NCBI GenBank assembly: GCA_964430265.1 | Contig: CAYSEI010000002.1 | Location: 141,209-205,208 of the forward strand | DNA from: an uncultured Pseudomonadales bacterium | GTDB lineage: Bacteria; Patescibacteriota; Microgenomatia; UBA1400; CAYXSR01 | Reading direction: 5' to 3' | DNA length: 64,000 nucleotides | Part shown: piece by piece, positions 9,908 to 54,479 of the stretch | Numbering within the stretch: position 1 is the stretch's first letter | Layout: every line of letters starts with the position of its first letter | Notes under the pieces: generated by a model | Databases searched by the model: none | What the model was told of the DNA's origin: nothing | The model's input: only the letters and a program-made list of their open reading frames with translations | Made by a program: the position numbers and the translations under genes

Positions 9908-10255
9908 ATGCAAGTTATACATGATGCAAAAAAACGCAAACAAAGGCGCATCCGCGAAAAAATAAAAAGAATCAGTAAAAGATTACGTTTATCGGTTTTT
10001 CGTTCCAATAAACATATTTATGCGCAAATTATAGATGATCAAGAAGAAAAAACATTAGTTTCGGCTAGTGATTTTGATTTGAAAAATAAGGATTTGAAAA
10101 AAAAGGAAGAAGCATTTGAAGTGGGAAAACTTTTGGCGGAAAAAGCATTAGATAAAAAAATAAAAAAAGTAGTTTTTGATAAGGGAGCATATAAATATCA
10201 TGGAAGAGTTAAAAATTTAGCAGATGGAGCCAGAAAAGGAGGCTTAGAATTCTAA
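9908..10255 (+). CDS. rplR: 50S ribosomal protein L18
   Basis: [19 protein letters not shown]18 signature. Confidence 0.9.
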
Positions 10256-10782
10256 TGCCTGATAACAAAGGAAAAAGCCAGAATAAAAAACAAGCTAATA
10301 AAGGAAGAAAAACTTCCCAAAGAAAAGGTCGCAGAAGAAGGAATGAAAGAGAATACGATCAGAAAGTAATTGATATTAACAGAGTATCTCAAAAAACAAA
10401 AGGTGGAGATAAAATGGGGTTCAACGCTTTGGTTGCAGTTGGTGATCATCAAGGCAAGGTGGGAGTAGCTTTAGGTAAAGCGCCTAGTGTGCTGCCGGCA
10501 ATTAAAAAAGGAGCACGTTTAGCAAAAAAGAAAATGGTTAAAGTTCCCCTTACTGAAGAAGGGACAATTCCACATGTTATCAAGGTTAAAGAAGGAGCAG
10601 CAAAAATTCTTTTAAAACCAGCACCTGCTGGTACAGGAATTATTGCAGGAGGTCCGATTAGAATATTAGCTGATTTAGCCGGAGTCAAAAATATTGTTAC
10701 TAAAATAATGGGTAGCAGAAATAAGATTAATAATTCTTATGCAACTATTAAAGCGTTTCAAAGTTTTAAAAAGAAAAAATGA
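10255..10782 (+). CDS. rpsE: 30S ribosomal protein S5
   Basis: VIDINRVSQKTKGGDKMGFNALVAVGD..S5 motifs with a Lys/Arg-rich N-terminal extension. Confidence 0.95.
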   Translation: MPDNKGKSQNKKQANKGRKTSQRKGRRRRNEREYDQKVIDINRVSQKTKGGDKMGFNALVAVGDHQGKVGVALGKAPSVLPAIKKGARLAKKKMVKVPLTEEGTIPHVIKVKEGAAKILLKPAPAGTGIIAGGPIRILADLAGVKNIVTKIMGSRNKINNSYATIKAFQSFKKKK

Positions 10783-11225
10783 AATTACACGAATTACCTA
10801 AAATTACAGATAGAAAGAAGAAAAGAATTGGCCGCGGTTATGGCTCAGGAAAAGGAGGCCATACTGTTGGTAGAGGTGCCAAGGGTCTTAAAGCTAGAGG
10901 AAAAGTTCCTTTGCTTTTTACTGGTACTAAAATGCGTAAGTCTTTTGTTAGACGTATTCCCTTTTTAAGAGGTAAAGGTAGATTTAAGCCCCAAAGCCCC
11001 AAACCGGAGATTGTAAATGTTGAAGAATTAAACAATTTACGTAAAGGTTCAGTGGTAACATTAGATAGGTTAATTGAAGAAGGATTGGTTGACAAAAGCG
11101 CAAAGAAAATTGGAGTAAAAATATTAGGAAGAGGAAAATTGGAAAAGGAAATGAAAGTGGAAGTACCGGTTTCTAAAGGAGCAGAAGAAAAGATTAAAAA
11201 AGCCGGTGGAGAAATAGTTAAGTGA
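10779..11225 (+). CDS. rplO: 50S ribosomal protein L15. It overlaps rpsE by 4 nt, so there is no intervening L30 gene.
   Basis: [37 protein letters not shown]15 N-terminus. Confidence 0.9.
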
Positions 11226-21596: not shown

Positions 21597-21839
21597 AGAG
21601 TAGCGAATTCCCATCTTGTTATGAAGTTTGCAATAATGTGAATGGGATATTTTGACTTAAAGAATTTAGATTGGTTTGAGAGAAACTATACAGGACTTGA
21701 ACAAACATATACTTCAATATACCAACAATTTTAGTTCGATTATGAATTTTTTCTTGTTTTTAATTCTTTTTGCGAACAATGGATTTAATAGGCTATATAA
21801 GGTTTTAAAAAATGCTTAAGAAAAAACTGTTAAATATTG

Positions 21840-21913
21840 TCGGGGCGACTGGACTTGAACCAGCGACCTTGCGCACCCCATGCGCACGCGCTATCCATCT
21901 GCGCCACGCCCCG
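21840..21913 (-). tRNA. tRNA-Pro (anticodon GGG), no encoded CCA
   Basis: Folded by hand from the reverse complement. Acceptor CGGGGCG/CGCCCCG, D-stem GCGC/GCGC, anticodon stem TGCGC/GCGCA, loop AUGGGGU, T-arm GCTGG-TTCAAGT-CCAGT. Confidence 0.85.
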
Positions 21914-31746: not shown

Positions 31747-31776
31747 TTTATATACCCGGAAAATATTGGTATAATA
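31747..31776 (+). promoter_or_regulatory. Candidate sigma70 promoter for the tRNA: TTTATA -35-like, then an extended -10 TGgTATAAT ending 11 nt before the tRNA 5' end
   Basis: TATAAT at 31770-31775 with TG at 31767-31768, read directly. Confidence 0.4.
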
Positions 31777-31786
31777 TTAATGTTTT

Positions 31787-31858
31787 GGGCTAGTAGCTCA
31801 GGGGTAGAGCGCTATTCTTATAAAATAGTGGTCGATAGTTCGAATCTATCCTAGCCCA
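31787..31858 (+). tRNA. tRNA-Ile with anticodon UAU (reads AUA), no encoded CCA
   Basis: Hand fold. Acceptor GGGCTAG/CTAGCCC, D-stem GCTC/GAGC, anticodon stem CTATT/AATAG, loop CUUAUAA (anticodon UAU), T-arm GATAG-TTCGAAT-CTATC, discriminator A. Confidence 0.8.
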
Positions 31859-31906
31859 CAAGAATAATTTATAATCAATTAAAAATTATAAAAATAAAGG
31901 ATTAAA

Positions 31907-32116
31907 ATGCCCAAATATTGTTATCAGTGCAATAAATGCGGAAAAACGTTTAAAATAGAAGCTTCCATTGAAGACAAAGAAAGCTTGGAAGTTTTCTGTC
32001 CTGAATGTGAAAGTACGGAAGTTAGGCAGAAATTTGGCACTTTTTTTAGTTCCGGAAATACGGGGGGATGTGTTTCAGGAAATTGCTCTTCTTGTTCAGG
32101 CTGCGGAGGACACTAA
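31907..32116 (+). CDS. FmdB-family zinc-ribbon protein with a Cys-rich tail
   Basis: 69 aa; CYQCNKCGK..CPECES zinc ribbon and a GGCVSGNCSSCSGCGGH tail. Confidence 0.7.
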   Translation: MPKYCYQCNKCGKTFKIEASIEDKESLEVFCPECESTEVRQKFGTFFSSGNTGGCVSGNCSSCSGCGGH

Positions 32117-32913
32117 TGGTTAAGGTTATAAAAGCTGACGGTACAAAAGAGACATTTTCTAAGGAAAAACTTAATCAATCTATGATAAGGGCCGGAATTG
32201 GTAAAACTATAAGGGGAAAAGTAATTGCAGAAGTTAAAGATAAACTTTATGAAGGAATTTCCACCAAAGAAATCTATGATTTGGTTTCCGAAGAGCTTGA
32301 TCGGCAGGAAAAATACCTTGCTTCAAAATATAGTTTAAAAAAAGCAATTATGCGACTTGGACCAACAGGCTATCCATTTGAAAAATTTATTGCGGGTCTT
32401 TTACAAAAAAAAGGATATAAAACAGAGACAGCGCAAGAATTAATGGGTAAGTGTGTTAGTCATGAAGTTGACGTGATTGCCCAAAAAGATAATAAAAAGT
32501 TTGCTGTTGAATGTAAATACCACAATAAAAGGGGAACAAAAACAGATATTCAAAATGCTTTATACATCTATGCTCGTTATTTAGATTTAAAAGAAGCTCA
32601 GCAGTTAGATGAAATGTGGCTGGTTACCAACACGAAAATGACTTCCAAAGCAGTTGAATACTCAGAGTGCGTAGGATTAAAAGTAATTAGCTGGAATTAC
32701 AGTGGTGAATGGAGTTTGAGTGAACTAGTTGAAAACAGTGATTTGTATCCTATAACTTGTTTGGAAACATTGACGCGTCCAGAAGAAAAAGAACTCTTAA
32801 ATGAAGGAATTGTTTTTTGCCGTGATCTGAAACAGTCACCCAAATCCAAATACTTGCTTCCGAAAAGCAAAAAAGAAGAAGTTTTAAAAGAAATTGAGTT
32901 TCTTACTGAATAA
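32116..32913 (+). CDS. ATP-cone domain protein fused to an Mrr-like PD-(D/E)xK restriction-endonuclease-fold domain
   Basis: N-terminus VKVIKADGTKETFSKEKLNQSMIRAG resembles the NrdR/RNR ATP-cone. The central HEVDVIAQKDNKKFAVECKYH fits the D..E-x-K nuclease core. ATG 32116 overlaps the upstream stop (TAATG); the longer 32068 start in the ORF track is rejected. Confidence 0.6.
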   Translation: MVKVIKADGTKETFSKEKLNQSMIRAGIGKTIRGKVIAEVKDKLYEGISTKEIYDLVSEELDRQEKYLASKYSLKKAIMRLGPTGYPFEKFIAGLLQKKGYKTETAQELMGKCVSHEVDVIAQKDNKKFAVECKYHNKRGTKTDIQNALYIYARYLDLKEAQQLDEMWLVTNTKMTSKAVEYSECVGLKVISWNYSGEWSLSELVENSDLYPITCLETLTRPEEKELLNEGIVFCRDLKQSPKSKYLLPKSKKEEVLKEIEFLTE

Positions 32914-33270: not shown

Positions 33271-34427
33271 ATTTAAGGAAATTAGGTCTTTTTGTACTAT
33301 CTATTTTATTGTTATTATTCTCTTTTGTTCCTGTTCTTAATGCTCAAGAACACAAGTGTGAAGATGTTGAAGTGCATTTTTTTTGGGCAAAAGGATGTCC
33401 CCATTGTGCTGAGGAAAAGAAATTTCTAGACAAACTTGAGAAAAAATATCCTGAATTGGATGTTCAAAGATACGAAGTTTCCGGAAATAGGGAAAATCAA
33501 GAGCATATGCAGAAACTGGCAGAAAAAGTGGACGCAAATGTAAGAGGTGTTCCGTTTACAGTAATTGAAGACCAATATTTTATTGGTTTTTATGATGAAG
33601 AAACAACAGGCAAAGAAATTGAAGAAGCAGTCAAATGCCTTTTGCCTCAGGAAAAGCAAGATAAATCAGTAATTCCTAATTCAGTTAGTGTACCCCTTTT
33701 AGGGAAAATTCAGACAAAAGAACTTTCCCTTCCTTTATTCAGTATTGTCTTAGGATTTTTGGACGGGTTTAATCCGTGTGCAATGTGGGTGCTTTTGTTT
33801 CTAATTAGTCTTTTATTGGGAATTGAGAACAAACGTAGACGTTGGATCCTTGGTAGCGTATTTATTGTTGCTTCTTCTTTTGTGTATTTTCTTTTTATGG
33901 TTGCATGGCTGAACTTCTTTTTGTTTTTGGGCTATGTAGTTTGGGTAAGGTATTTGATTGGTGCTTTGGCAGTAGGTGTGGGAATATATAATTTTTATGA
34001 TTTTTATAAAAACAAAGACGGCGGCTGCAAAGTTACAGGGGATGAAAAAAGACGTAAAATATTTTATAAAATTAAAAATATTGTTAAGAAAAATAGTTTA
34101 TTTATAGCAATAATTGGAATAATTCTTCTTGCTTTTGCAGTTAATATGGTAGAGCTTGTTTGTTCCGCAGGTCTTCCGGCAATATTTACCAAGGTTTTAA
34201 CATTAAGCAAACTTCCAATGTGGGAGTATTATTCTTATTTACTTTTATATATTCTATTTTTTATGATTGATGATTTGATCATTTTTTTTACGGCTATGAT
34301 TACCCTCCATACAGTAGGAATTGAATCTAAGTATGCAAGATATTCCAATATTATTGGAGGCCTTTTAATGCTGATTATTGGAATTTTAATGCTCTTTAAG
34401 CCAGAAGTTTTAATGTTTAGTGGTTAA
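33267..34427 (+). CDS. Signal-peptide thioredoxin domain (CPHC) fused to a CcdA/DsbD-beta-like 6-TM thiol-disulfide transporter domain
   Basis: N-terminal signal peptide and WAKGCPHCAEEKKFL thioredoxin motif. The TM domain has one Cys in each of two helices (GFNPCAMWVL, ELVCSAGLPA), as in CcdA/DsbD. Confidence 0.6.
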   Translation: MNLRKLGLFVLSILLLLFSFVPVLNAQEHKCEDVEVHFFWAKGCPHCAEEKKFLDKLEKKYPELDVQRYEVSGNRENQEHMQKLAEKVDANVRGVPFTVIEDQYFIGFYDEETTGKEIEEAVKCLLPQEKQDKSVIPNSVSVPLLGKIQTKELSLPLFSIVLGFLDGFNPCAMWVLLFLISLLLGIENKRRRWILGSVFIVASSFVYFLFMVAWLNFFLFLGYVVWVRYLIGALAVGVGIYNFYDFYKNKDGGCKVTGDEKRRKIFYKIKNIVKKNSLFIAIIGIILLAFAVNMVELVCSAGLPAIFTKVLTLSKLPMWEYYSYLLLYILFFMIDDLIIFFTAMITLHTVGIESKYARYSNIIGGLLMLIIGILMLFKPEVLMFSG

Positions 34428-35520
34428 AATTAAGGCTGGGCCTGCGTTCTAAAGAATAAATATCTTTTACAAATTCTTTTCTTTTGTATTTATAATAAGC
34501 AGCAATTCCAATCATAGCTGCATTATCTCCCAGTAAACGATCAGAATAAGGAATAGTAACTGGCATAGAGTATTTCTTTGCAGTTTGTCTTATCTTGTTT
34601 CTAACGTATAAGTTATTAATAACACCGCCTCCTAGAAGAAGTTTATTAACAGGATATTTATCCATTGCTTTTTCCAGTTTGTTAGTGATTGATTTAGTTA
34701 AAACTTTTTGAAATGAAGCAGAAAAGTCTTTGTAAAATTGTGCATTTTTAGTTTTTTCATCAAATTCTTTTATTTTATACATGCAAGCTGTTTTTAATCC
34801 GGAAAAGGAAAAATTTAGAGACTTATGTTTGCGCATGGGAACAGGAAGCTCAAATCTGTCAGCATTTCCTTCTTCTGCAAGCTTTTCAATTATTGGTCCT
34901 CCAGGATAGCCTAAATCAAGCATTTTAGCAACCTTATCAAAAGCTTCACCAGCTGCATCATCAAGTGTTTCTCCTAATAATTCATATTTTCCGAATTTTT
35001 TCATTAATACAAGCTGTGTATGTCCTCCAGATATTAAAAGGCCAAGAAAAGGAAAGTCATGTTCTTCTGATGAAAGGGGTCCTTTTCCTTTTGAATTCAA
35101 AGCAAAAGAAGAAAGTAGATGCGCTTCCATATGGTTGATTGCTGTTAAAGGCTTTTTTAAATCACAAGAAAGTTGTTTTGCTTTTTCTATTCCAACTTCT
35201 AGTGAAGGAGCAAGTCCGGGTCCACGGGTAACAGCAACAGCATCCAGCTTTTTATATTTAATTTTATCAATGGGCAGATTAAAATGCTTTCTAACGCGGT
35301 TAGCTCTTTTAAGTGCTGTTTCAATAACATCACCTATATGTTCTTTATGCTCTCTTTTTGCAAGGTTAGGAACAACCCCTCCCCATTCTTTATGTACTTC
35401 AATTTGTGAATGAATAATATTGCTTAAAACTCTTCGTGCAAAAGTAATTGCTGCAGCTGTTTCATCGCATGATGTTTCAATAGATAAAATAATAGGATTA
35501 TTATTCATGACTGACCTCAA
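34417..35520 (-). CDS. tsaD: tRNA N6-adenosine threonylcarbamoyltransferase TsaD
   Basis: SIETSCDETAAAI, HMEAHL, GGVINN Kae1/TsaD motifs. Confidence 0.9.
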   Translation of the reverse strand: MRSVMNNNPIILSIETSCDETAAAITFARRVLSNIIHSQIEVHKEWGGVVPNLAKREHKEHIGDVIETALKRANRVRKHFNLPIDKIKYKKLDAVAVTRGPGLAPSLEVGIEKAKQLSCDLKKPLTAINHMEAHLLSSFALNSKGKGPLSSEEHDFPFLGLLISGGHTQLVLMKKFGKYELLGETLDDAAGEAFDKVAKMLDLGYPGGPIIEKLAEEGNADRFELPVPMRKHKSLNFSFSGLKTACMYKIKEFDEKTKNAQFYKDFSASFQKVLTKSITNKLEKAMDKYPVNKLLLGGGVINNLYVRNKIRQTAKKYSMPVTIPYSDRLLGDNAAMIGIAAYYKYKRKEFVKDIYSLERRPSLNFNH

Positions 35521-36595
35521 TTCGTCTATTTTTTTTGTTGTCAGTATATTTTATTGATACCCAAATTATTTTAATATTGGGATTTGATTTATACTGATCA
35601 ACAAGATATTTGGCTTTTTCAATCCATTCAACTGCAATTACATTTCCTGGCTTAAGCATTCTTTTAAAACCGAGGTTTTCCAGTTCTTGAGGGTTTTCCA
35701 TACGCCAAGTGTCTATGTGAAAAAACATTCCACTTTTTTTATTTAAAGAGTAATTGTATTCACGGACTAGTACATAGCTGGGTGACTTGATAGTACTTTT
35801 TATATTTAAAGCTTTGGCAATTCCTTTACAAAACTCGGTTTTTCCTGTGCCCAGCTTTCCTTGCAAAGCAAAAATTAAACATTTATCTTCATTTAAATAT
35901 TTAAAGTGGTCAGTTGTCAGGGAAATAGCAAGATTTTGAGTTTCTTGATTAGACCTACTTGTTGAAATTCTTGAATTTAAATCACTAAAGTTTATTTTCC
36001 CTTCTCTAATAATCTCTAGATTTTCTTTTGTTGTGCTTACGACTGTAGACGGTTTTCTTTTTGGCAGTTCCCCCGCGTCAATAATAAGGTCAATTAATTT
36101 CTTTTTTTCTTGACTTAGACATACTAAAATATCCTTAATTTTATATGGTGTTTTTTTATTGGAGATATTTGCAGAAGTTGCTGTTATTGGCTTCCCAAAT
36201 TTTCTTATTATTTTTCTTGTTAATTCATAATCTGGAATTCTTATTCCTAATGTGCCTTTTTCTGATTCAAGTTTAGAATCAACTTTATGTTTACCCATTG
36301 AAATTACTGTAATAGGACCCGGAAGAAAATTATCATAAAGATTTTCTGCAGTTTTATTAAATTCAACATAATTCTTGGCCATTTTCTTATCCGAAACAGC
36401 AATAGAAATTGGTTTACCCTTGCGAAACCCTTTGTAATTGAGTAATTTTTGTACTGCTTTCGGGTTAGTGGCGTCCACGCCAATTCCATAACAAGTTTCG
36501 GTTGGGTATATAATAACTCCATCTTTATTAAGGACAGCAGCAACTTTTTTTATAATTTCTTTTTCTGGTATTTGCTTAAGTTTTATTGTTTTCAT
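35501..36595 (-). CDS. Fusion of threonylcarbamoyl-AMP synthase TsaC (Sua5/YrdC domain) with P-loop ATPase TsaE (YjeE)
   Basis: N-terminal YrdC fold (IYPTETCYGIGVDA, SIAVSD, LPGPITVIS). The C-terminal part has a GKLGTGKT Walker A and a TsaE-like tail (SPSYVLVREY..FHIDTWR). Confidence 0.75.
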   Translation of the reverse strand: MKTIKLKQIPEKEIIKKVAAVLNKDGVIIYPTETCYGIGVDATNPKAVQKLLNYKGFRKGKPISIAVSDKKMAKNYVEFNKTAENLYDNFLPGPITVISMGKHKVDSKLESEKGTLGIRIPDYELTRKIIRKFGKPITATSANISNKKTPYKIKDILVCLSQEKKKLIDLIIDAGELPKRKPSTVVSTTKENLEIIREGKINFSDLNSRISTSRSNQETQNLAISLTTDHFKYLNEDKCLIFALQGKLGTGKTEFCKGIAKALNIKSTIKSPSYVLVREYNYSLNKKSGMFFHIDTWRMENPQELENLGFKRMLKPGNVIAVEWIEKAKYLVDQYKSNPNIKIIWVSIKYTDNKKNRRIEVSHE

Positions 36596-36645: not shown

Positions 36646-37707
36646 ATGTTTAAGAAATTAATTATCAGCTTATTATTTATACTATATTTAGCTAATCCTG
36701 CAATGGCGCAGAAAAATGCTACTTATCAAGGTGTAATAACTAATGTGATTAGTGAAGAAAAGCAAGGAATGACAAATCTTCAAAAAGTTGAAGTTAAAAT
36801 TACAAATGATAAAGCAAATATAGATAAAGTTGAAGCACTGGTACAGATGTCAGGAGCTGTAAAACAGAGAAAGGCAAAAAAAGGGGACGAAGTAATTTTG
36901 GAATCCGGTACAAACTTGGAAGGCAATGTTCAGTATTATGTTGTGGATTTTGTTAGGACTAGCGGTCTTTTTTGGTTGTTTTTGATATTTGTGGCTCTTG
37001 TTTTATCAGTTGCCAGATTTAAAGGATTGACTTCACTGATTGGAATGGCTTTTTCATTTGTAGTCATATTTATGTTAATACTGCCTCTCATAAACCAAGG
37101 AAAAGATCCAGTTTTGGTTTCATTATTAAGTTCACTTTTGATTATCCCAGCCACATTTTACATGTCTCATGGATTTGAAAAAAAGACAACGGTTGCTGTG
37201 ATTGGTACATTAATTTCTTTGGGTATTACCGGGTTACTAGCACAAGTTTTTGTTCAAGCTACAAGGTTGAGTGGTTTTGTTTCGGAAGAAGCAGGCTTTT
37301 TACAGCAAATGAAAGGTGGAGAAATTAATGTAAGAGGACTTTTATTGGCAGGAATAATAATTGGAACCTTGGGAATTTTGGATGACGTATCAATATCTCA
37401 AGCGGGAATAATAGATCAACTCAAGAAAGCAAACAAAAAAATAAAAGACAAAGAACTTTTTAACAGGGCAATGGAAATCGGTCGTGACCACATTGCTTCT
37501 ATGGTTAATACTTTAGTGTTGGTTTATACAGGAGCAGCTTTACCTTTGTTGCTTTTATTTATTAATAATCCGCATCCGTTTATGGAAATAGTTAATTATG
37601 AAATTATTGCCGAGGAAATTGTCAGAACTTTAGTCGGTAGCATTGGTTTAATAACAGCGGTTCCAATTACTACTATACTGGCAATAAAAATGCAAAATGA
37701 AAAATAA
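36646..37707 (+). CDS. YibE/F-family membrane protein
   Basis: Signal peptide, then polytopic membrane protein with the YibE/F-like motif GILDDVSISQAG; start chosen at ATG 36646 (the signal-peptide Met). Confidence 0.65.
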   Translation: MFKKLIISLLFILYLANPAMAQKNATYQGVITNVISEEKQGMTNLQKVEVKITNDKANIDKVEALVQMSGAVKQRKAKKGDEVILESGTNLEGNVQYYVVDFVRTSGLFWLFLIFVALVLSVARFKGLTSLIGMAFSFVVIFMLILPLINQGKDPVLVSLLSSLLIIPATFYMSHGFEKKTTVAVIGTLISLGITGLLAQVFVQATRLSGFVSEEAGFLQQMKGGEINVRGLLLAGIIIGTLGILDDVSISQAGIIDQLKKANKKIKDKELFNRAMEIGRDHIASMVNTLVLVYTGAALPLLLLFINNPHPFMEIVNYEIIAEEIVRTLVGSIGLITAVPITTILAIKMQNEK

Positions 37708-38791
37708 AACATATTATATTGCCACTTTCGGCTGTCAAATAAATGAGGTAAATTCAGAGAAAATTGCCGCATTAATGGAAAAAAGAGGCTATAAACCGGC
37801 AATAGATCCTAATAAAGCAGAACTTGTGATAATAAATACCTGTTCTGTTAGAGAATCTGCAGAAAACCGGGTTTTTGGTTTAGTGAATAACCTTTCCAAA
37901 AACAAAAAAGAACAAAAAATAATTCTTACCGGCTGTATGCTTTATCATGGTAAAAAATGGCTTAAGAGAAAACTACCCGAGGTGAATTCATTTATTGAAA
38001 CTCCTGAATTTTTGGACAAAAAGGTTTTGCCCAAAAGAAAAAAGAAGAAACACGCTTGGGTTCCAATAATGTCGGGATGTAATAATTTTTGCAGTTATTG
38101 TGTAGTTCCTTATGCAAGAGGGAGAGAAAAAAGCAGAAATCTAACTGAAATTTATTGTGAAATAGAAAAATTAGCAGAAACTGATTACACAAAAATTACT
38201 CTTTTAGGGCAAAATGTAAATTCATACGGATTAGATTTTGAAAAAAAAGAGTGGGAAAGCCAAATAAGAGAATTAGAAAAGCGAGTAAAATTTAACTGCA
38301 AAAAAGTAAAGTGTAAATATTCTACTCCTTTTGGCTTTTTATTGGCAGTAATTCATCAAATAAAAAGCATAAAAAGTATTGCGTTTCTTACCAGCAATCC
38401 CTGGGATCTCACTGACGATATATTACGGGCTATGAAACTTCCTAAAATTGAAAAACACCTGCATTTGCCTGTTCAGTCAGGGGATGATCAAATCCTGAAA
38501 AAAATGAACAGAGACTATACAGCAGAAGAATATTTAAAACTGATAAATAAAGCAAAAAAAACTATTCCGGACTTAACTATTGGTACTGATATTATTGTTG
38601 GTTTTCCCGGAGAAACCAAAAAGCAATTTCAAAATACAGTAAAACTTTGTAAAAAAGTAAATTTCTCTAAAGCATATGTTGCCAGGTACTCACCACGTCC
38701 GGGAACAGTAGCTGCAAAATATAAAGATGATGTACCTCACAAAGAGAAAAAGCGGCGCTGGAGAATTTTAAATAAAATGATAAATGAATAA
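37697..38791 (+). CDS. Radical SAM methylthiotransferase of the MiaB/RimO/MtaB family, apparently lacking the C-terminal TRAM domain
   Basis: N-terminal MTTase Cys triad (FGCQ, NTCSV, TGCM), radical SAM CNNFCSYC; only 364 aa. Confidence 0.8.
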   Translation: MKNKTYYIATFGCQINEVNSEKIAALMEKRGYKPAIDPNKAELVIINTCSVRESAENRVFGLVNNLSKNKKEQKIILTGCMLYHGKKWLKRKLPEVNSFIETPEFLDKKVLPKRKKKKHAWVPIMSGCNNFCSYCVVPYARGREKSRNLTEIYCEIEKLAETDYTKITLLGQNVNSYGLDFEKKEWESQIRELEKRVKFNCKKVKCKYSTPFGFLLAVIHQIKSIKSIAFLTSNPWDLTDDILRAMKLPKIEKHLHLPVQSGDDQILKKMNRDYTAEEYLKLINKAKKTIPDLTIGTDIIVGFPGETKKQFQNTVKLCKKVNFSKAYVARYSPRPGTVAAKYKDDVPHKEKKRRWRILNKMINE

Positions 38792-39828: not shown

Positions 39829-39830
39829 AT

Positions 39831-40118
39831 ACTCGGGAAGCCCGTAAGCCAGATTCTGTTTTAAAGTGACATTTGTCTATGCCCTCAAACTCGTTCGATT
39901 CGCGGAGGCATGCTCAGACGAACGCACGGAGGTTGCAGCAGGGGGAATTACCTCTTTTCACCCTCTATCCTTGAAACCAAGGCGAGTTGTTGTCTCTGTG
40001 GCTTATACCGTTTCTACAACAAAGTTGTAAACCACTGCCTTACGGCAGTCACCCTGCCTCCAGCTGTCTGGACTTTCCTCTCTGAACTAAATCAGAGCGT
40101 CACTTCAGCTTCCCGAGT
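39831..40118 (-). ncRNA. rnpB: RNase P RNA, bacterial type A-like, reduced (~290 nt)
   Basis: The reverse complement reads 5' CUCGGGAAGC (P1), a P3 hairpin GCUCUGA/UCAGAG, GGAAAGUCCAGACAGC (P4 5' strand), AGGGUGAAAAGAGGUAA, ACAGAAUCUGGCUUAC (P4 3' strand, with CCAG/CUGG compensatory pairs), GGGCUUCCCGAG (P1 3'). The region is also locally GC-rich. Confidence 0.8.
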
Positions 40119-44403: not shown

Positions 44404-45006
44404 ATGAAATTTATAATTTTTTCCGATATTCACAAAGATTGGGAAGCCTTAAAAAAAGTCTTAAATAAAAAAGCCGATATTTATATATGTTTGGGTGATT
44501 TTACTCAAGTAGGATCGGGTTTAAATAGTGCCGGTAAAATCTTTTCCCAAAAAAAGAAAAATCTTTGGCTTATCCACGGGAATAGTGAAACACCTCAACA
44601 AATCAAACAGATGGAAAATAAATTCGCAATAAAAAATTTTCATAATCAGCTGTTTAAAAAAGGAAAATATAATTTTGCAGGAATGGGCGGATCCAATTTA
44701 ACACCTTTTAATACACCCGGGGATGTTGAGGAAGAACAACTGAAAAAGTGGCTGGAAAATTTTAAAAAGGTTAAGAACCTTCTCTTGTTTACCCATGTAC
44801 CTTCTAAAAATACAAGCTTGGACAAGATTTCAGAAAATATGCATATAGGAAGCAGTGCTGTTAGAGATTTTATTGAAAGGAATCAGCCTTTGTATCATTT
44901 TTCCGGACATGTACACGAAAATGCAGGTAAAAAGGATAGAATCGGCAAAACAAAATGTATCTTGGTAGGAAAAGAAGGGTTTGAACTTGAGTTGTCTGAT
45001 AAATGA
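44404..45006 (+). CDS. Metallophosphoesterase (calcineurin-like)
   Basis: FSDIH, GDF, GNSE, GHVH motifs. Confidence 0.7.
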   Translation: MKFIIFSDIHKDWEALKKVLNKKADIYICLGDFTQVGSGLNSAGKIFSQKKKNLWLIHGNSETPQQIKQMENKFAIKNFHNQLFKKGKYNFAGMGGSNLTPFNTPGDVEEEQLKKWLENFKKVKNLLLFTHVPSKNTSLDKISENMHIGSSAVRDFIERNQPLYHFSGHVHENAGKKDRIGKTKCILVGKEGFELELSDK

Positions 45007-46532
45007 AAAAGACAAGCAGAACATTTTTCTCCTTAATTATTTTAATATTAATAGCTGTTCTGTTTAGTGGTTGTCAAAATGAACAAGAAGACCTAAAATT
45101 AAAACTAAATTCATTGGAAAAAGAAATGGTAAGAAAATCTGCTGTATCAGGAACATTTTATTCTACAAACAAAACCGAGCTAAGTAATCAACTGGATGAT
45201 TTTCTAGCCGGAGCGGAAAAAAATGTTGATCATCCGCAATTAATTATTGTTCCCCATGCAGGATATCTTTATTCAGGTTCAACAGCTGCTGCTGGATTTA
45301 AGCAACTTCAAGACGAGGAAATTTCACGAATAGTTTTAATAGGATTAAGCCACAAACAATTTTTTGATGGATATGCAATTGATGGAAATGATTTTTGGGA
45401 AACTCCCCTTGGCAAAGTTCAGATTGATAAAGAATTTGCCAATAAACTAGTGAACAAAAAATTAGGATTTAAGTTTTCCTCTAAAGCACATGCTGAAGAA
45501 CACTCTTTAGAGGTTCAGTTGCCATTTTTACAAAAAGTCATTGAGGAATTTAAACTTGTTCCAATTCTTTTCGGAGAAACAAAGGAAAAAGACTATTCAG
45601 AAATAGCAGACTTAATAAATAAACTAGCGTATGAAAGAACAGTGATTGTTATTAGCAGTGATTTATCACATTATCCGGACTATAAGACTGCTAAAAAAGT
45701 AGATAAAAAAACTATTGATGCCATCTTAACTGGCAAGCAGGAAATATTTAAAGATACAATAAAAAGACTGGAAAGAGAAAATAAAAATGTTGATACCTGC
45801 GCTTGTAGTAAAGAACCCATAAAATTAGGAATGCAGATTGTTAAAGAAACTGAAGGTGTTTGGAATTTAATAAAATATACAAATTCTGGTGATGTAACAA
45901 ATGAGAAAAACAAGGTTGTGGGATATGCTGCAATTACTTTTTCTCCTAAAGAATTCGGGATTAAAACTAAAAAAAAAGCGGAAGAAATATTGGATTCTAA
46001 AAGTAAAAAAACCTTGTTACAAATTGCCAGACAAACAATTGAAAAATACCTCAAAGATAAAAAGATTCCTGAATATAAGATTAATAATCCGCAATTGGAA
46101 ATTAAAAGAGGAGTATTTGTTACTCTGAAAAGAGGAGAGCAGCTAAGAGGTTGTATTGGAGAATTTAATCCGGAAAAAGAACTTTGGAGACTTGTTCAGA
46201 AAAAGGCAATTGATGCGGCTTTACATGATCCACGATTTGATCCTGTAAGACTTGAAGAACTCAATGATCTGAATTTGGAAATATCAGTTCTTTCACTTCC
46301 TAAAAAAGTTCAAAATTGGCAAGAAGTTGAGGTCGGGAAGCACGGGGTCTTAATTAAAAAAGGATTGCGCGGAGGAACATTCTTACCTCAAGTTGCTGTT
46401 GATGAAGGTTGGGATAAGGAAACATTTTTATCTAATCTTTGTGCTCACAAAGCCGGACTGCCTCCTGAATGCTATAAAGATCCGGAAGTTGAAATTTTTA
46501 CTTACACTGCGGAGGTGTTTAAAGAGGAATGA
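45003..46532 (+). CDS. Fusion of Memo-like (AmmeMemoRadiSam system protein B) and AMMECR1 (protein A) domains behind a lipoprotein-type signal peptide
   Basis: N-terminal hydrophobic segment ending LFSGC. Memo motifs (IVPHAGYLYSG, LSH, HSLE). C-terminal AMMECR1 motifs (RGVFVTL, LRGCIGEF). Confidence 0.75.
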   Translation: MKKTSRTFFSLIILILIAVLFSGCQNEQEDLKLKLNSLEKEMVRKSAVSGTFYSTNKTELSNQLDDFLAGAEKNVDHPQLIIVPHAGYLYSGSTAAAGFKQLQDEEISRIVLIGLSHKQFFDGYAIDGNDFWETPLGKVQIDKEFANKLVNKKLGFKFSSKAHAEEHSLEVQLPFLQKVIEEFKLVPILFGETKEKDYSEIADLINKLAYERTVIVISSDLSHYPDYKTAKKVDKKTIDAILTGKQEIFKDTIKRLERENKNVDTCACSKEPIKLGMQIVKETEGVWNLIKYTNSGDVTNEKNKVVGYAAITFSPKEFGIKTKKKAEEILDSKSKKTLLQIARQTIEKYLKDKKIPEYKINNPQLEIKRGVFVTLKRGEQLRGCIGEFNPEKELWRLVQKKAIDAALHDPRFDPVRLEELNDLNLEISVLSLPKKVQNWQEVEVGKHGVLIKKGLRGGTFLPQVAVDEGWDKETFLSNLCAHKAGLPPECYKDPEVEIFTYTAEVFKEE

Positions 46533-52204: not shown

Positions 52205-53079
52205 ATTTTGTAAAGTTTAGATGGCTATATTTTGCAATTTCACTGATTTTGCTGGTTTCCAGCATTTTCTCTCTTGCAAACTGGGGTTTAAAACCGGCAA
52301 TTGATTTTACTGGCGGCAGTATTTTGGAAATCAAATTTGAAAAACAAAATGTCCAAGAAAAAGTAAGAGAAATAGTCCAAGAAAATCAGGACATTGAACT
52401 AGACTCTTTACAAAAATCAGATGACAACACTTATTTGCTTCGAATGAAAACAATTAACAAAGATAAGAAAAATACACTTATAAAAAGTTTTGAAGAACAA
52501 ATTGGTCAAAATGAGGAAGTTCGCTTTATTACGGTTGGTCCTAGTATAGGTAGGGAATTAATCAGAAAAACAATTTTTGCAGTAATCTTGGCGGCCGGAT
52601 TTATTATGCTTTATGTTGCACTGCGTTTTAAAGACAAAAAATTCGGAGTATGTGCAATTCTGGCAATGTTTCACGACTCCCTGATTTTAATAGGAACGTT
52701 TGCATTTATGGGAGGTTTTTTTGGAGTTGAGGTAGATACATTGTTTGTTACCGCAGTCTTAACAACTCTTTCCTTATCAGTCCATGATACTGTTGTTGTT
52801 TATGATCGCGTCAGGGAGGCAAAAAAGCTTTTTGCTAGAGCAAGTTTAAAAGAACTGGTAAATAAAGCAATTGCTGAAACATTAAACCGCTCAATTATTA
52901 ACTCTTTAACCATTATCTTTATGCTGCTTTCTCTTTGGCTTTTTGGTGGTGAAACAATTCAGTGGTTTGTGTTTGCCCTTTTAGTGGGAACAATCCTGGG
53001 AACGTATTCTTCTACCTTTATAGCAGCGCCATTGCTTGTTTTGTGGGAAAATATAAAAAACAAAAAAAATAACAATTAA
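52201..53079 (+). CDS. secF: Protein translocase subunit SecF
   Basis: DFTGGS motif, 6 TM; coupled to secD. Confidence 0.9.
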   Translation: MNFVKFRWLYFAISLILLVSSIFSLANWGLKPAIDFTGGSILEIKFEKQNVQEKVREIVQENQDIELDSLQKSDDNTYLLRMKTINKDKKNTLIKSFEEQIGQNEEVRFITVGPSIGRELIRKTIFAVILAAGFIMLYVALRFKDKKFGVCAILAMFHDSLILIGTFAFMGGFFGVEVDTLFVTAVLTTLSLSVHDTVVVYDRVREAKKLFARASLKELVNKAIAETLNRSIINSLTIIFMLLSLWLFGGETIQWFVFALLVGTILGTYSSTFIAAPLLVLWENIKNKKNNN

Positions 53080-54479
53080 TCTTTTTTTAATTCTTTTGCA
53101 ATTTCCTTTATTCTGTTAACCAGATCTTTACGATTGTTTTTTGAAGCATCCTCCATTACCTCTTTAAAAAGCTTTTCCAAAACTTTACCAACAATAGGTC
53201 CGGGATCAATATCCAGAATTTCTGCAACATCATTACCATCTACTTTAAGGTCTTTAATCTCCATAGGAGTATACATTAACTTACCCACTCTTTCTTGTAG
53301 TTCTCTAAGCCTCCAGGAGGTTGCTTTACTACCTCCTCCGCGTCGGTCACCAATACGAAGCATCATCATCTTATTAATATTTTCTTTTCCGACTCGTTTG
53401 ATAAAGCGTCTTATGGCAGCGTCTGTCATTTCTGGATTATAGGAAAACATATGAAAGCGGACCAATTTATATAAAAGCTCTTTTTGTTCATTACTCAGTT
53501 TGAAACGCTCAGCAATTTTTTTGGCAATTCTTCCTCCAACTACCTCATGATTATAAAAGGTTATTTCTTCACCTATTTTTCTAAATGTCGGCGGTTTACC
53601 GACATCATGTAAAAGTGTAGCAAATAAAACAATCGGATCATTTGAAGGACAGCCGTCTAGTCCGTCCAATGTGTGATTCCAAACGTCTTTAGTATGGTGT
53701 CCGCTCTGCTCAACTCCTTTCATTGCCAAAAGTTCAGGCAGAAAATGACTTAAGAGATTAGCAGAATGCAATAAACGGATTCCGTCACCCGGGTAATCGG
53801 ATTTTAATATTTTAAAAAATTCATCCCTGATTCTTTCCATGCTGATTTTATTAATCAAATCAGCGTTATTTTTTATTGCATCTAAGGTTTCTTCTTCAAT
53901 TGTAAAGCCAAGCTCTGCTGCAATGCGGATTGCACGCATCATTCTTAAAGCATCTTCGGAAAAACGCTTGTCAGGATCTCCGACTGCACGGATTAACCTT
54001 TTTTCCAGATCTTCTTGTCCGTTAAAAGGATCAACAATTTCTGTTTTTTTATTAGATTTTAATGCCATAGCATTAATAGTAAAATCTCGTCTTTTTAAAT
54101 CCTCTTCTAAAGTTTTACCCCACTTAACGTTATCCGGTCTTCTAAAATCGGAATACTCAGATTCGCTTCTGAATGTGGTTATTTCAAAAACATCCTCTGG
54201 GTTAATACCTTCTTCTTTCCAATTGTATTTTTCAATACCAAACTGTTCAGTCAATTCTTCACCAGTAATTCCTACGGTGCCAAATTGATTAGTGTAAAAA
54301 CTTTCAGGGAACAACTTTTGAATTTCTTCAGGTATCGCATCAGTTGTAAAATCCCAGTCATAAGTAGGTTTGCCAAGTAAAATATCCCTGATTGCACCAC
54401 CGACAACATATGCCTCAAAACCGGCTTCTTCAAGTGTTTGCAAAACATTATTAACTAGTGTTGGGATTTTAAGTTTCAT
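53076..54479 (-). CDS. cca: CCA-adding tRNA nucleotidyltransferase with HD domain
   Basis: GGAIRD..DWDF head domain, RRDFTINA, HD domain LHDVGK. Confidence 0.85.
   Translation of the reverse strand: MKLKIPTLVNNVLQTLEEAGFEAYVVGGAIRDILLGKPTYDWDFTTDAIPEEIQKLFPESFYTNQFGTVGITGEELTEQFGIEKYNWKEEGINPEDVFEITTFRSESEYSDFRRPDNVKWGKTLEEDLKRRDFTINAMALKSNKKTEIVDPFNGQEDLEKRLIRAVGDPDKRFSEDALRMMRAIRIAAELGFTIEEETLDAIKNNADLINKISMERIRDEFFKILKSDYPGDGIRLLHSANLLSHFLPELLAMKGVEQSGHHTKDVWNHTLDGLDGCPSNDPIVLFATLLHDVGKPPTFRKIGEEITFYNHEVVGGRIAKKIAERFKLSNEQKELLYKLVRFHMFSYNPEMTDAAIRRFIKRVGKENINKMMMLRIGDRRGGGSKATSWRLRELQERVGKLMYTPMEIKDLKVDGNDVAEILDIDPGPIVGKVLEKLFKEVMEDASKNNRKDLVNRIKEIAKELKKD

Follow-up and report, generated by a model that had tools for sequence, protein, structure and literature searches.

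The window analysed here, by which we mean the whole 64-kb stretch of DNA, has a G+C content of ~33% and includes the S10-spc-alpha ribosomal-protein cluster. Two tRNA genes, those for tRNA-Pro(GGG) and tRNA-Ile(UAU), were called in it by ARAGORN. The former (21839-21913, minus strand) is solitary, lies upstream of recA and has a G+C content of 69% in a 33% G+C genome. The latter is likewise solitary, being flanked on one side by a GldG/DUF4340 ABC-transporter module and on the other by a Zn-ribbon gene. This FmdB zinc-ribbon gene (31907-32116, plus strand) is overlapped by 49 nt by an ATP-cone/Mrr-like ORF (32068-32913, plus strand), the true start of which is probably the ATG at 32116 (MVKVIK...). 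Elsewhere in the window, a single 509-aa protein (45003-46532, plus strand) carries a Memo-like domain fused to an AMMECR1 domain. The features that bear on tRNA-Ile(UAU) are collected in Table 1.

Searches with the SecY sequence retrieved one match of 98% identity on a short Logan contig, another of 86% on a second Logan contig and many below ~74%. The named matches in the last group were assigned to Woesebacteria, Shapirobacteria, the 'Microgenomates group' and the 'Patescibacteria group'. Judged by these sequence relationships, the host is an ultra-small bacterium from the Microgenomates group of the CPR. As read from the translations, the S5 gene of the window is followed by that for L15 with a 4-nt overlap and no L30 gene between them (10255-11225, plus strand). 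A missing L30 at this place is a known trait of CPR bacteria. Of the 84 genes, 23 end with TGA as the stop codon; therefore, the standard code 11 applies.

Table 1. Position of the tRNA-Ile(UAU) gene, its predicted promoter elements and the genes for tRNA maturation in the window
Feature	Position	Strand	Source
-35-like hexamer TTTATA, 4/6 matches to TTGACA, 17 nt before the -10 element	31747-31752	+	promoter scan
Extended -10 element TGGTATAAT, ending 11 nt before the tRNA 5' end	31767-31775	+	sequence, promoter scan
tRNA-Ile(UAU) gene, 72 nt, discriminator A73, no encoded CCA	31787-31858	+	ARAGORN, Rfam
Anticodon TAT (UAU), loop CUUAUAA with A37 and A38	31819-31821	+	ARAGORN (tRNA position 33), sequence
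tsaD	34417-35520	-	NCBIfam TIGR03723
tsaC/sua5-tsaE fusion, 364 aa, overlapping tsaD	35501-36595	-	TIGR00057, TIGR00150
RNase P RNA, class A, shortened	39829-40116	-	Rfam RF00010
CCA-adding enzyme	53076-54479	-	Pfam PF01743, PF12627, PF13735

In the scan of the 64-kb window, ARAGORN identified a tRNA-Ile with the anticodon tat at 31787-31859 on the plus strand, and the Rfam model RF00005 spans 31787-31858 over model positions 1-71 of 71 with a score of 71.2 bits (gathering score 29; E = 1.5e-13). There are no non-canonical pairs in the fold given by Rfam, and the 7-nt anticodon loop, CUUAUAA, has U33 and A37 around a genome-encoded UAU. The anticodon stem is AT-rich, with G-C in one of its five pairs, the MFE z-score of the tRNA is -2.8, and the gene is directly followed by CAAG, not by CCA. 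To assess covariation, 16 related tRNA(UAU) genes from the genome and metagenome scans, all with the same architecture, were aligned. The metagenome scan, for which a lineage-specific tRNA pattern was used, had yielded nine loci, none of them syntenic with the window. In the alignment 98.8% of the cloverleaf cells are paired, and for 15 of 21 pairs both partners have changed; as the search pattern had set the D stem and anticodon loop, these two are uninformative in this count. None of 500 shuffles reached as high a value, and slid registers fell to ~40% pairing or below. The tRNA-Ile(UAU) gene is real and correctly identified, and the UAU anticodon read in the preliminary description from a fold made by hand is the one on which ARAGORN, the check named there, and Rfam concur.

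The sequence upstream of the gene, TTGGTATAAT, contains TGGTATAAT. On both strands of the 64-kb window, the motif TGNTATAAT occurs three times, compared with 4.0 occurrences expected by chance. One copy is that at the tRNA-Ile(UAU) gene and another lies 34 nt upstream of the gene for the CCA-adding enzyme. Because the motif is found just three times in the window, a correctly oriented copy immediately 5' of the tRNA is unlikely to be there by chance. A generic promoter scan showed no enrichment over shuffles in this AT-rich DNA.

Several genes for the maturation of the tRNA are close at hand. The t6A machinery is located 2.6 kb from tRNA-Ile(UAU), and genes for tRNA-Ile(UAU) are also found near sua5 and tsaD in loci L001 and L130, with the TsaC/Sua5-TsaE fusion called again in L130. 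Since A37 follows U36, this machinery is expected to act on position 37 of the present, ANN-reading tRNA. The RNase P RNA is 288 nt long against the 367 positions of the class A model, from which it differs by large deletions, and scores 105.4 bits (gathering score 100); it is expected to remove the short 5' leader of tRNA-Ile(UAU). The CCA-adding enzyme is needed because the tRNA gene has no encoded CCA. The window also holds a gene for a MiaB/RimO-family radical-SAM methylthiotransferase of 364 aa (37697-38791, plus strand), which scores just below the MiaB equivalog cut-off and appears to be without a C-terminal TRAM domain, its match ending at about profile position 360 of 429. No ileS gene was found in the 64-kb window. 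An IleRS capable of recognizing U34 would be expected to have Arg or Lys in place of Trp in its Zn-binding domain, or else to be of type 2. Large class I synthetases encoded beside tRNA-Ile(UAU) genes of CPR bacteria were considered as candidates for IleRS and rejected, as they turned out to be ValRS or LeuRS.

AUA codons, TilS and the spread of tRNA-Ile(UAU)

AUA is a common codon in the window. In the 84 genes (20,085 codons), ATA is used 25.9 times per 1000 codons, compared with 50.9 for ATT, 8.3 for ATC and 19.0 for ATG, so that AUA is commoner than AUG. The 520 ATA codons amount to 30% of all isoleucine codons and are distributed over 79 of the 84 genes. In the block of ribosomal proteins and translation factors the frequency is 20.5 per 1000, and the earlier statement that AUA is very frequent, the ribosomal proteins included, holds by count. 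A recent study of TilS placed genomes with more than 10 AUA codons per 1000 in the class of high AUA usage, into which the value of 25.9 falls.

Neither component of the TilS-dependent system was seen in the window: tilS was not found among the Pfam-scanned ORFs or by a search for ORFs with an SGGxDS PP-loop, and ARAGORN called no CAU tRNA in the 64 kb. The PP-loop motif was also lacking from the ORFs of the 133 fetched loci, which at ~8 kb or less are uninformative on absence. For the lineage as a whole we turned to Supplementary Data 1 of Meheust et al. 2019, which gives genome counts for 921 widespread protein families in 2321 CPR and 1198 non-CPR bacterial genomes. In these counts, which concern draft MAGs and one protein family and would overlook any divergent CPR TilS assigned to a different family, TilS (K04075, PF01171) is depleted, being present in 123 of 2321 CPR against 866 of 1198 non-CPR genomes, i.e. 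in about 5% of CPR compared with 72% of other bacteria. The same table lists MnmG (K03495; 5 CPR versus 897 non-CPR genomes) and TadA (K11991; 158 versus 873) as depleted, whereas MnmA (K00566; 1495 versus 948), TsaD (1942 versus 995), MiaA (1878 versus 987), S10 (2138 versus 1054) and EF-Ts (1983 versus 1046) are equally distributed. Because of these family counts, the enzymes of position 34 can be said to be mostly missing from CPR bacteria, with those of position 37 being kept. Lysidine is not discussed in the main text of that paper. In addition, Shulgina and Eddy noted that CPR bacteria appear to be without tRNA-Arg(ACG).

In order to see how widely tRNA-Ile(UAU) genes are distributed, one genome per GTDB species was scanned with a pattern that combined a standard T arm with the loop CTTATAA and a D stem of the form GCUC/GAGC. 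The scan produced at least 120 tRNA(UAU) loci, and ARAGORN calls all of the 120 listed tRNA-Ile(tat). At least 57 among the 120 matches listed carry CPR labels, from at least 14 named candidate phyla; the labels among these matches are Parcubacteria/Paceibacterota, Saccharibacteria, Dojkabacteria/WS6, Peri-/Peregrinibacteria, Microgenomates, Minisyncoccia and Woese-, Levy-, Magasanik-, Kuenen-, Falkow-, Moran-, Nealson- and Buchananbacteria. A further 24 of the matches listed are either unclassified or lie on small MAG contigs labelled 'Gammaproteobacteria', and several of these 24 display CPR-type synteny. The remaining matches listed belong to Planctomycetota (13), Ignavibacteria/Bacteroidota (6), archaea, mostly Micrarchaeota (6), and other scattered groups (14). 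In published surveys of complete genomes, the count was nine species in 2013; a TAT gene was listed for 19 species in 2014, and a survey of 2021 gave 17 genomes. The rarity attributed to genomic tRNA-Ile(UAU) in the preliminary description therefore stands for cultured organisms and complete genomes (the nine species and 17 genomes) but not for uncultivated CPR bacteria, with their loci numbering at least 57.

Outside the CPR, in six Planctomycetota loci (L013, L018, L021, L045, L047 and L076), tRNA-Ile(UAU) is part of very dense arrays of 17-35 tRNAs within 8 kb, which also hold tRNA-Ile(GAU) as well as odd predictions with 4-base anticodons or long variable regions; these arrays may be tRNA-array islands. 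In five Ignavibacteria/Bacteroidota loci (L009, L016, L099, L114 and L118) tRNA(UAU) is found beside fusA and tuf where the ribosomal-protein cluster begins, which suggests that this is another lineage with a conserved UAU tRNA.

In CPR loci, tRNA(UAU) often follows ftsH and precedes tRNA-Val(GAC); in other CPR loci it is clustered with two CAU tRNAs. The ftsH gene is present within a few kb of tRNA-Ile(UAU) in 17 CPR loci (L026, L031, L036, L042, L046, L055, L057, L061, L066, L067, L068, L073, L090, L100, L107, L115 and L119), many of them with the order ftsH, tRNA-Ile(UAU), tRNA-Val(GAC). Linkage of ftsH with tilS, in the order tilS-hpt-ftsH, is found in many other bacteria. In the eight of the 17 CPR loci subjected to a Pfam scan, TilS was not among the products of the ORFs flanking ftsH, these being S1-domain proteins, ArgRS, TrpRS/TyrRS, an EamA transporter or unknown, a result that speaks weakly against the presence of tilS. 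As to the CAU tRNAs beside tRNA-Ile(UAU) in CPR loci, one is initiator-like and one elongator-like, and neither is a close paralogue of tRNA-Ile(UAU). In L001, L012 and L061, the initiator-like tRNA has U1 paired with A72 (TGCGGGG...CCCCGCA-A) and an unusual D arm, and the elongator-like tRNA has U32 (loop UUCAUAA) and a G1-U72 pair.

The tRNA-Ile2(CAU)/TilS system is missing from most of the CPR radiation, and we infer that tilS and tRNA-Ile2(CAU) are absent from the present genome as well, a conclusion that is strong at the level of the lineage. An alternative is that tRNA-Ile(UAU) is a redundant minor isoacceptor, with tilS and tRNA-Ile2(CAU) encoded elsewhere in the genome and both tRNAs decoding AUA. 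Bacteria with both systems do exist (Lactobacillus casei/plantarum, Cyanothece and Ferrimonas), 123 CPR genomes have a member of the TilS family, and most of the genome lies outside of the 64-kb window. However, the 5% share of TilS carriers among CPR bacteria compares with 72% among other bacteria in the same table, AUA usage is high, the tRNA is retained across relatives and has a promoter that is both strong and conserved (see below), and tilS was seen neither in the window nor beside ftsH in those CPR loci that were examined. Taken together, these observations make redundancy unlikely, if still the most plausible of the alternatives. That tRNA-Ile(UAU) acts as the sole decoder of AUA is well supported for the lineage and likely for this genome.

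Conservation of the locus and meaning of AUA

Contigs syntenic with the window were reached by a protein search with the GldG-like gene located upstream of the tRNA. GldG of contig L133 is 70% identical to that of the window, and those of L130, L131 and L132 are 53% identical; in all four contigs a tRNA-Ile(tat) gene occupies the same gap. The gene order of L130 is as in the window: recA-recX-rny-hup-ABC transporters-gldG-DUF4340-[gap]-Zn-ribbon-ATP-cone/Mrr...thioredoxin...tsaD-sua5/tsaE-yibE. The tRNA of L133 is 100% identical to that of the window and the tRNA of L130 differs from it by one compensatory pair in the T stem and one base in the variable loop.

The predicted promoter is conserved along with the gene. 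TGnTATAAT is found exactly 11 nt 5' of the tRNA in both L133 and L130, the -10 element being retained as TGTTATAAT or TGGTATAAT at the same distance, whereas the surrounding spacer has diverged and is unalignable. An extended -10 ending 11 nt upstream of the tRNA, as had been proposed for the window, is therefore confirmed in the sequence and keeps its distance in two diverged relatives. The -35-like hexamer TTTATA is weakly conserved (TTAATA and TTAACC in the relatives) and is probably dispensable given the extended -10. From these comparisons, tRNA-Ile(UAU) is predicted to have its own conserved sigma-70 promoter of the extended -10 type.

Delivery of the tRNA by a phage or another mobile element, as opposed to its being a core gene, might be suspected from the fact that some tRNA(UAU) genes elsewhere, e.g. 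in Planctomycetota, are located inside very large and possibly mobile tRNA arrays. The present gene, in contrast, is solitary between housekeeping genes, its gene order is kept in a relative with GldG merely 53% identical, and no integrase or repeat signature was seen; we consider a mobile origin very improbable.

What AUA stands for was examined by aligning the window proteins with homologues from the fetched loci. At 179 aligned positions, the residues opposite ATA are isoleucine (45%), valine (21%), leucine (16%) and methionine (4%). Opposite ATT they are isoleucine (52%), valine (18%), leucine (11%) and methionine (4%), and opposite ATG the residue is methionine in 53%. Because the spectrum of ATA matches that of ATT and differs from that of ATG, AUA is read as isoleucine, and its reassignment to methionine is effectively excluded. 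In Escherichia coli, the identity elements recognized by IleRS are A73, C4-G69, U12-A23, C29-G41, A37 and A38. The present tRNA-Ile(UAU) has A73, C4-G69, U12-A23, A37 and A38, but A-U in place of C-G at 29-41; the E. coli rules may not transfer to CPR bacteria. Furthermore, the acceptor, D and T arms of tRNA(UAU) genes from CPR bacteria are similar to those of the co-resident tRNA-Ile(GAU). Reassignment of the codon, with the UAU tRNA charged with methionine or another amino acid and AUA not read as isoleucine, as in many mitochondria, could be entertained in view of the code changes for which CPR bacteria are known (e.g. UGA=Gly and CGA/CGG=Trp in Absconditabacteria). Nevertheless, with isoleucine, valine and leucine making up 82% and methionine 4% of residues opposite ATA, as for ATT and unlike ATG, and with an isoleucine-type tRNA body, such a reassignment has an even smaller chance of being correct than a mobile origin. 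Finally, the idea that the gene is a chance tRNA-like sequence or a pseudogene, for which nothing but the AT-rich anticodon stem speaks, has a negligible probability in view of the 71-bit Rfam score with no non-canonical pairs, the covarying stems and a tRNA perfectly conserved in L133 between diverged flanks.

Decoding of AUA and its implications

We consider it likely that the gene encodes a functional tRNA-Ile(UAU), very probably bearing t6A at position 37, which would most likely be the main or only decoder of AUA and would replace the tRNA-Ile2(CAU)/TilS system. Transcription would proceed from its own extended -10 promoter, beginning some 4-5 nt ahead of the mature 5' end. The leader would be trimmed by RNase P, the 3' end completed by the CCA-adding enzyme, and t6A very probably placed on A37. 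After charging, presumably by IleRS, the UAU anticodon would pair directly with AUA, and AUG would be left to tRNA-Met. Misreading of AUG might be avoided through weak U:G pairing of an unmodified U34 on the ribosome together with competition by tRNA-Met, by analogy with Mycoplasma mobile and a Bacillus subtilis suppressor. The tRNA-Ile(UAU) of M. mobile and the suppressor tRNA1-Ile(UAU) of B. subtilis both have an unmodified U34 and bind well to AUA but poorly to AUG on the ribosomes of their own species (PMC3575796, PMC3919564). The earlier suggestion that an anticodon modification would be required to keep the tRNA from reading AUG is not supported, given that unmodified U34 reads AUG weakly in these two cases and that MnmG is nearly absent from CPR bacteria.

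The frame in which the preliminary description had placed the gene, namely TilS with tRNA-Ile2(CAU) on the one hand and tRNA-Ile(UAU) on the other, with M. mobile as the classic case, agrees with the published literature. TilS-independent decoding of AUA is already known from M. mobile, and the tRNA is less exceptional than was assumed. The tRNA-Ile2(UAU) of M. mobile (Taniguchi et al. 2013, PMC3575796) shares with that of the window a genomic UAU, A37, an AT-rich reduced genome and AUA as an isoleucine codon. In addition, M. mobile belongs to a lineage without tilS and the CPR lineage is mostly without it. However, the loss in M. mobile is a recent one inside Tenericutes, relatives of which keep tilS, whereas the CPR trait appears to be radiation-wide. 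Moreover, unmodified U34, an adaptation of IleRS at Arg865 and discrimination by the ribosome were shown for M. mobile, while the CPR tRNA is known from its sequence.

The suppressor of a tilS deletion in B. subtilis, tRNA1-Ile(G34U) (Kohrer et al. 2014, PMC3919564), demonstrates that a U34 free of modification lets an isoleucine tRNA body read AUA strongly, with weak reading of AUG. It is comparable to the CPR tRNA(UAU) in having such a body, the latter resembling tRNA-Ile(GAU), but it is a laboratory mutation in a TilS-dependent genome, whereas the CPR gene is natural and conserved. Bifidobacterium and Neorickettsia also are without tilS and carry a tRNA-Ile(TAT) gene; these bacteria have a horizontally acquired eukaryote-type (type-2) IleRS, for which the window offers no ileS to compare. 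Lactobacillus casei/plantarum, Cyanothece and Ferrimonas have the tRNA-Ile(TAT) gene too but keep tilS, and their decoding is redundant, which is the less likely state here. A parallel is found in reduced or episymbiotic archaea: Nanoarchaeum equitans and Korarchaeum cryptofilum have a UAU tRNA in place of the system based on a modified C34 (agmatidine), although these belong to another domain and the enzyme lost is TiaS, not TilS. Genes for tRNA(UAU) of Micrarchaeota (DPANN) were present among the scan matches listed.

In a wider perspective, we lean towards the view that most CPR/Patescibacteria, and in parallel DPANN archaea, read AUA with a genomic tRNA-Ile(UAU) and without TilS, TadA and MnmG. 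This state might be ancestral, in line with the LUCA model proposed by Taniguchi et al., or reflect an early loss that was offset by adaptations of IleRS and the ribosome or by an unknown modification of U34. We found no paper on the CPR-wide pattern in the searchable literature (CPR or Patescibacteria combined with tilS, lysidine or AUA), and it is the use of tRNA-Ile(UAU) together with the loss of TilS, TadA and MnmG across the CPR that we did not find described there.

TilS is generally presented as an essential enzyme that about 98% of annotated bacterial genomes conserve, and genomic tRNA-Ile(UAU) has been treated in the literature as a curiosity of a few species. The window presents the alternative decoding in a genome where AUA outnumbers AUG, and the evidence suggests that such decoding is the rule in a radiation that comprises a large share of bacterial diversity. 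If this is true, the CPR would be a large bacterial group with an anticodon set poor in wobble modifications. As a consequence, tilS and tRNA-Ile2(CAU) would be unsuitable as expected markers in the annotation of CPR genomes and in metrics of their completeness, and the finding would also have a bearing on antibiotic ideas aimed at TilS. Finally, CPR bacteria would provide natural test cases for the accurate reading of an all-A:U codon-anticodon pair (AUA:UAU) without wobble modification.
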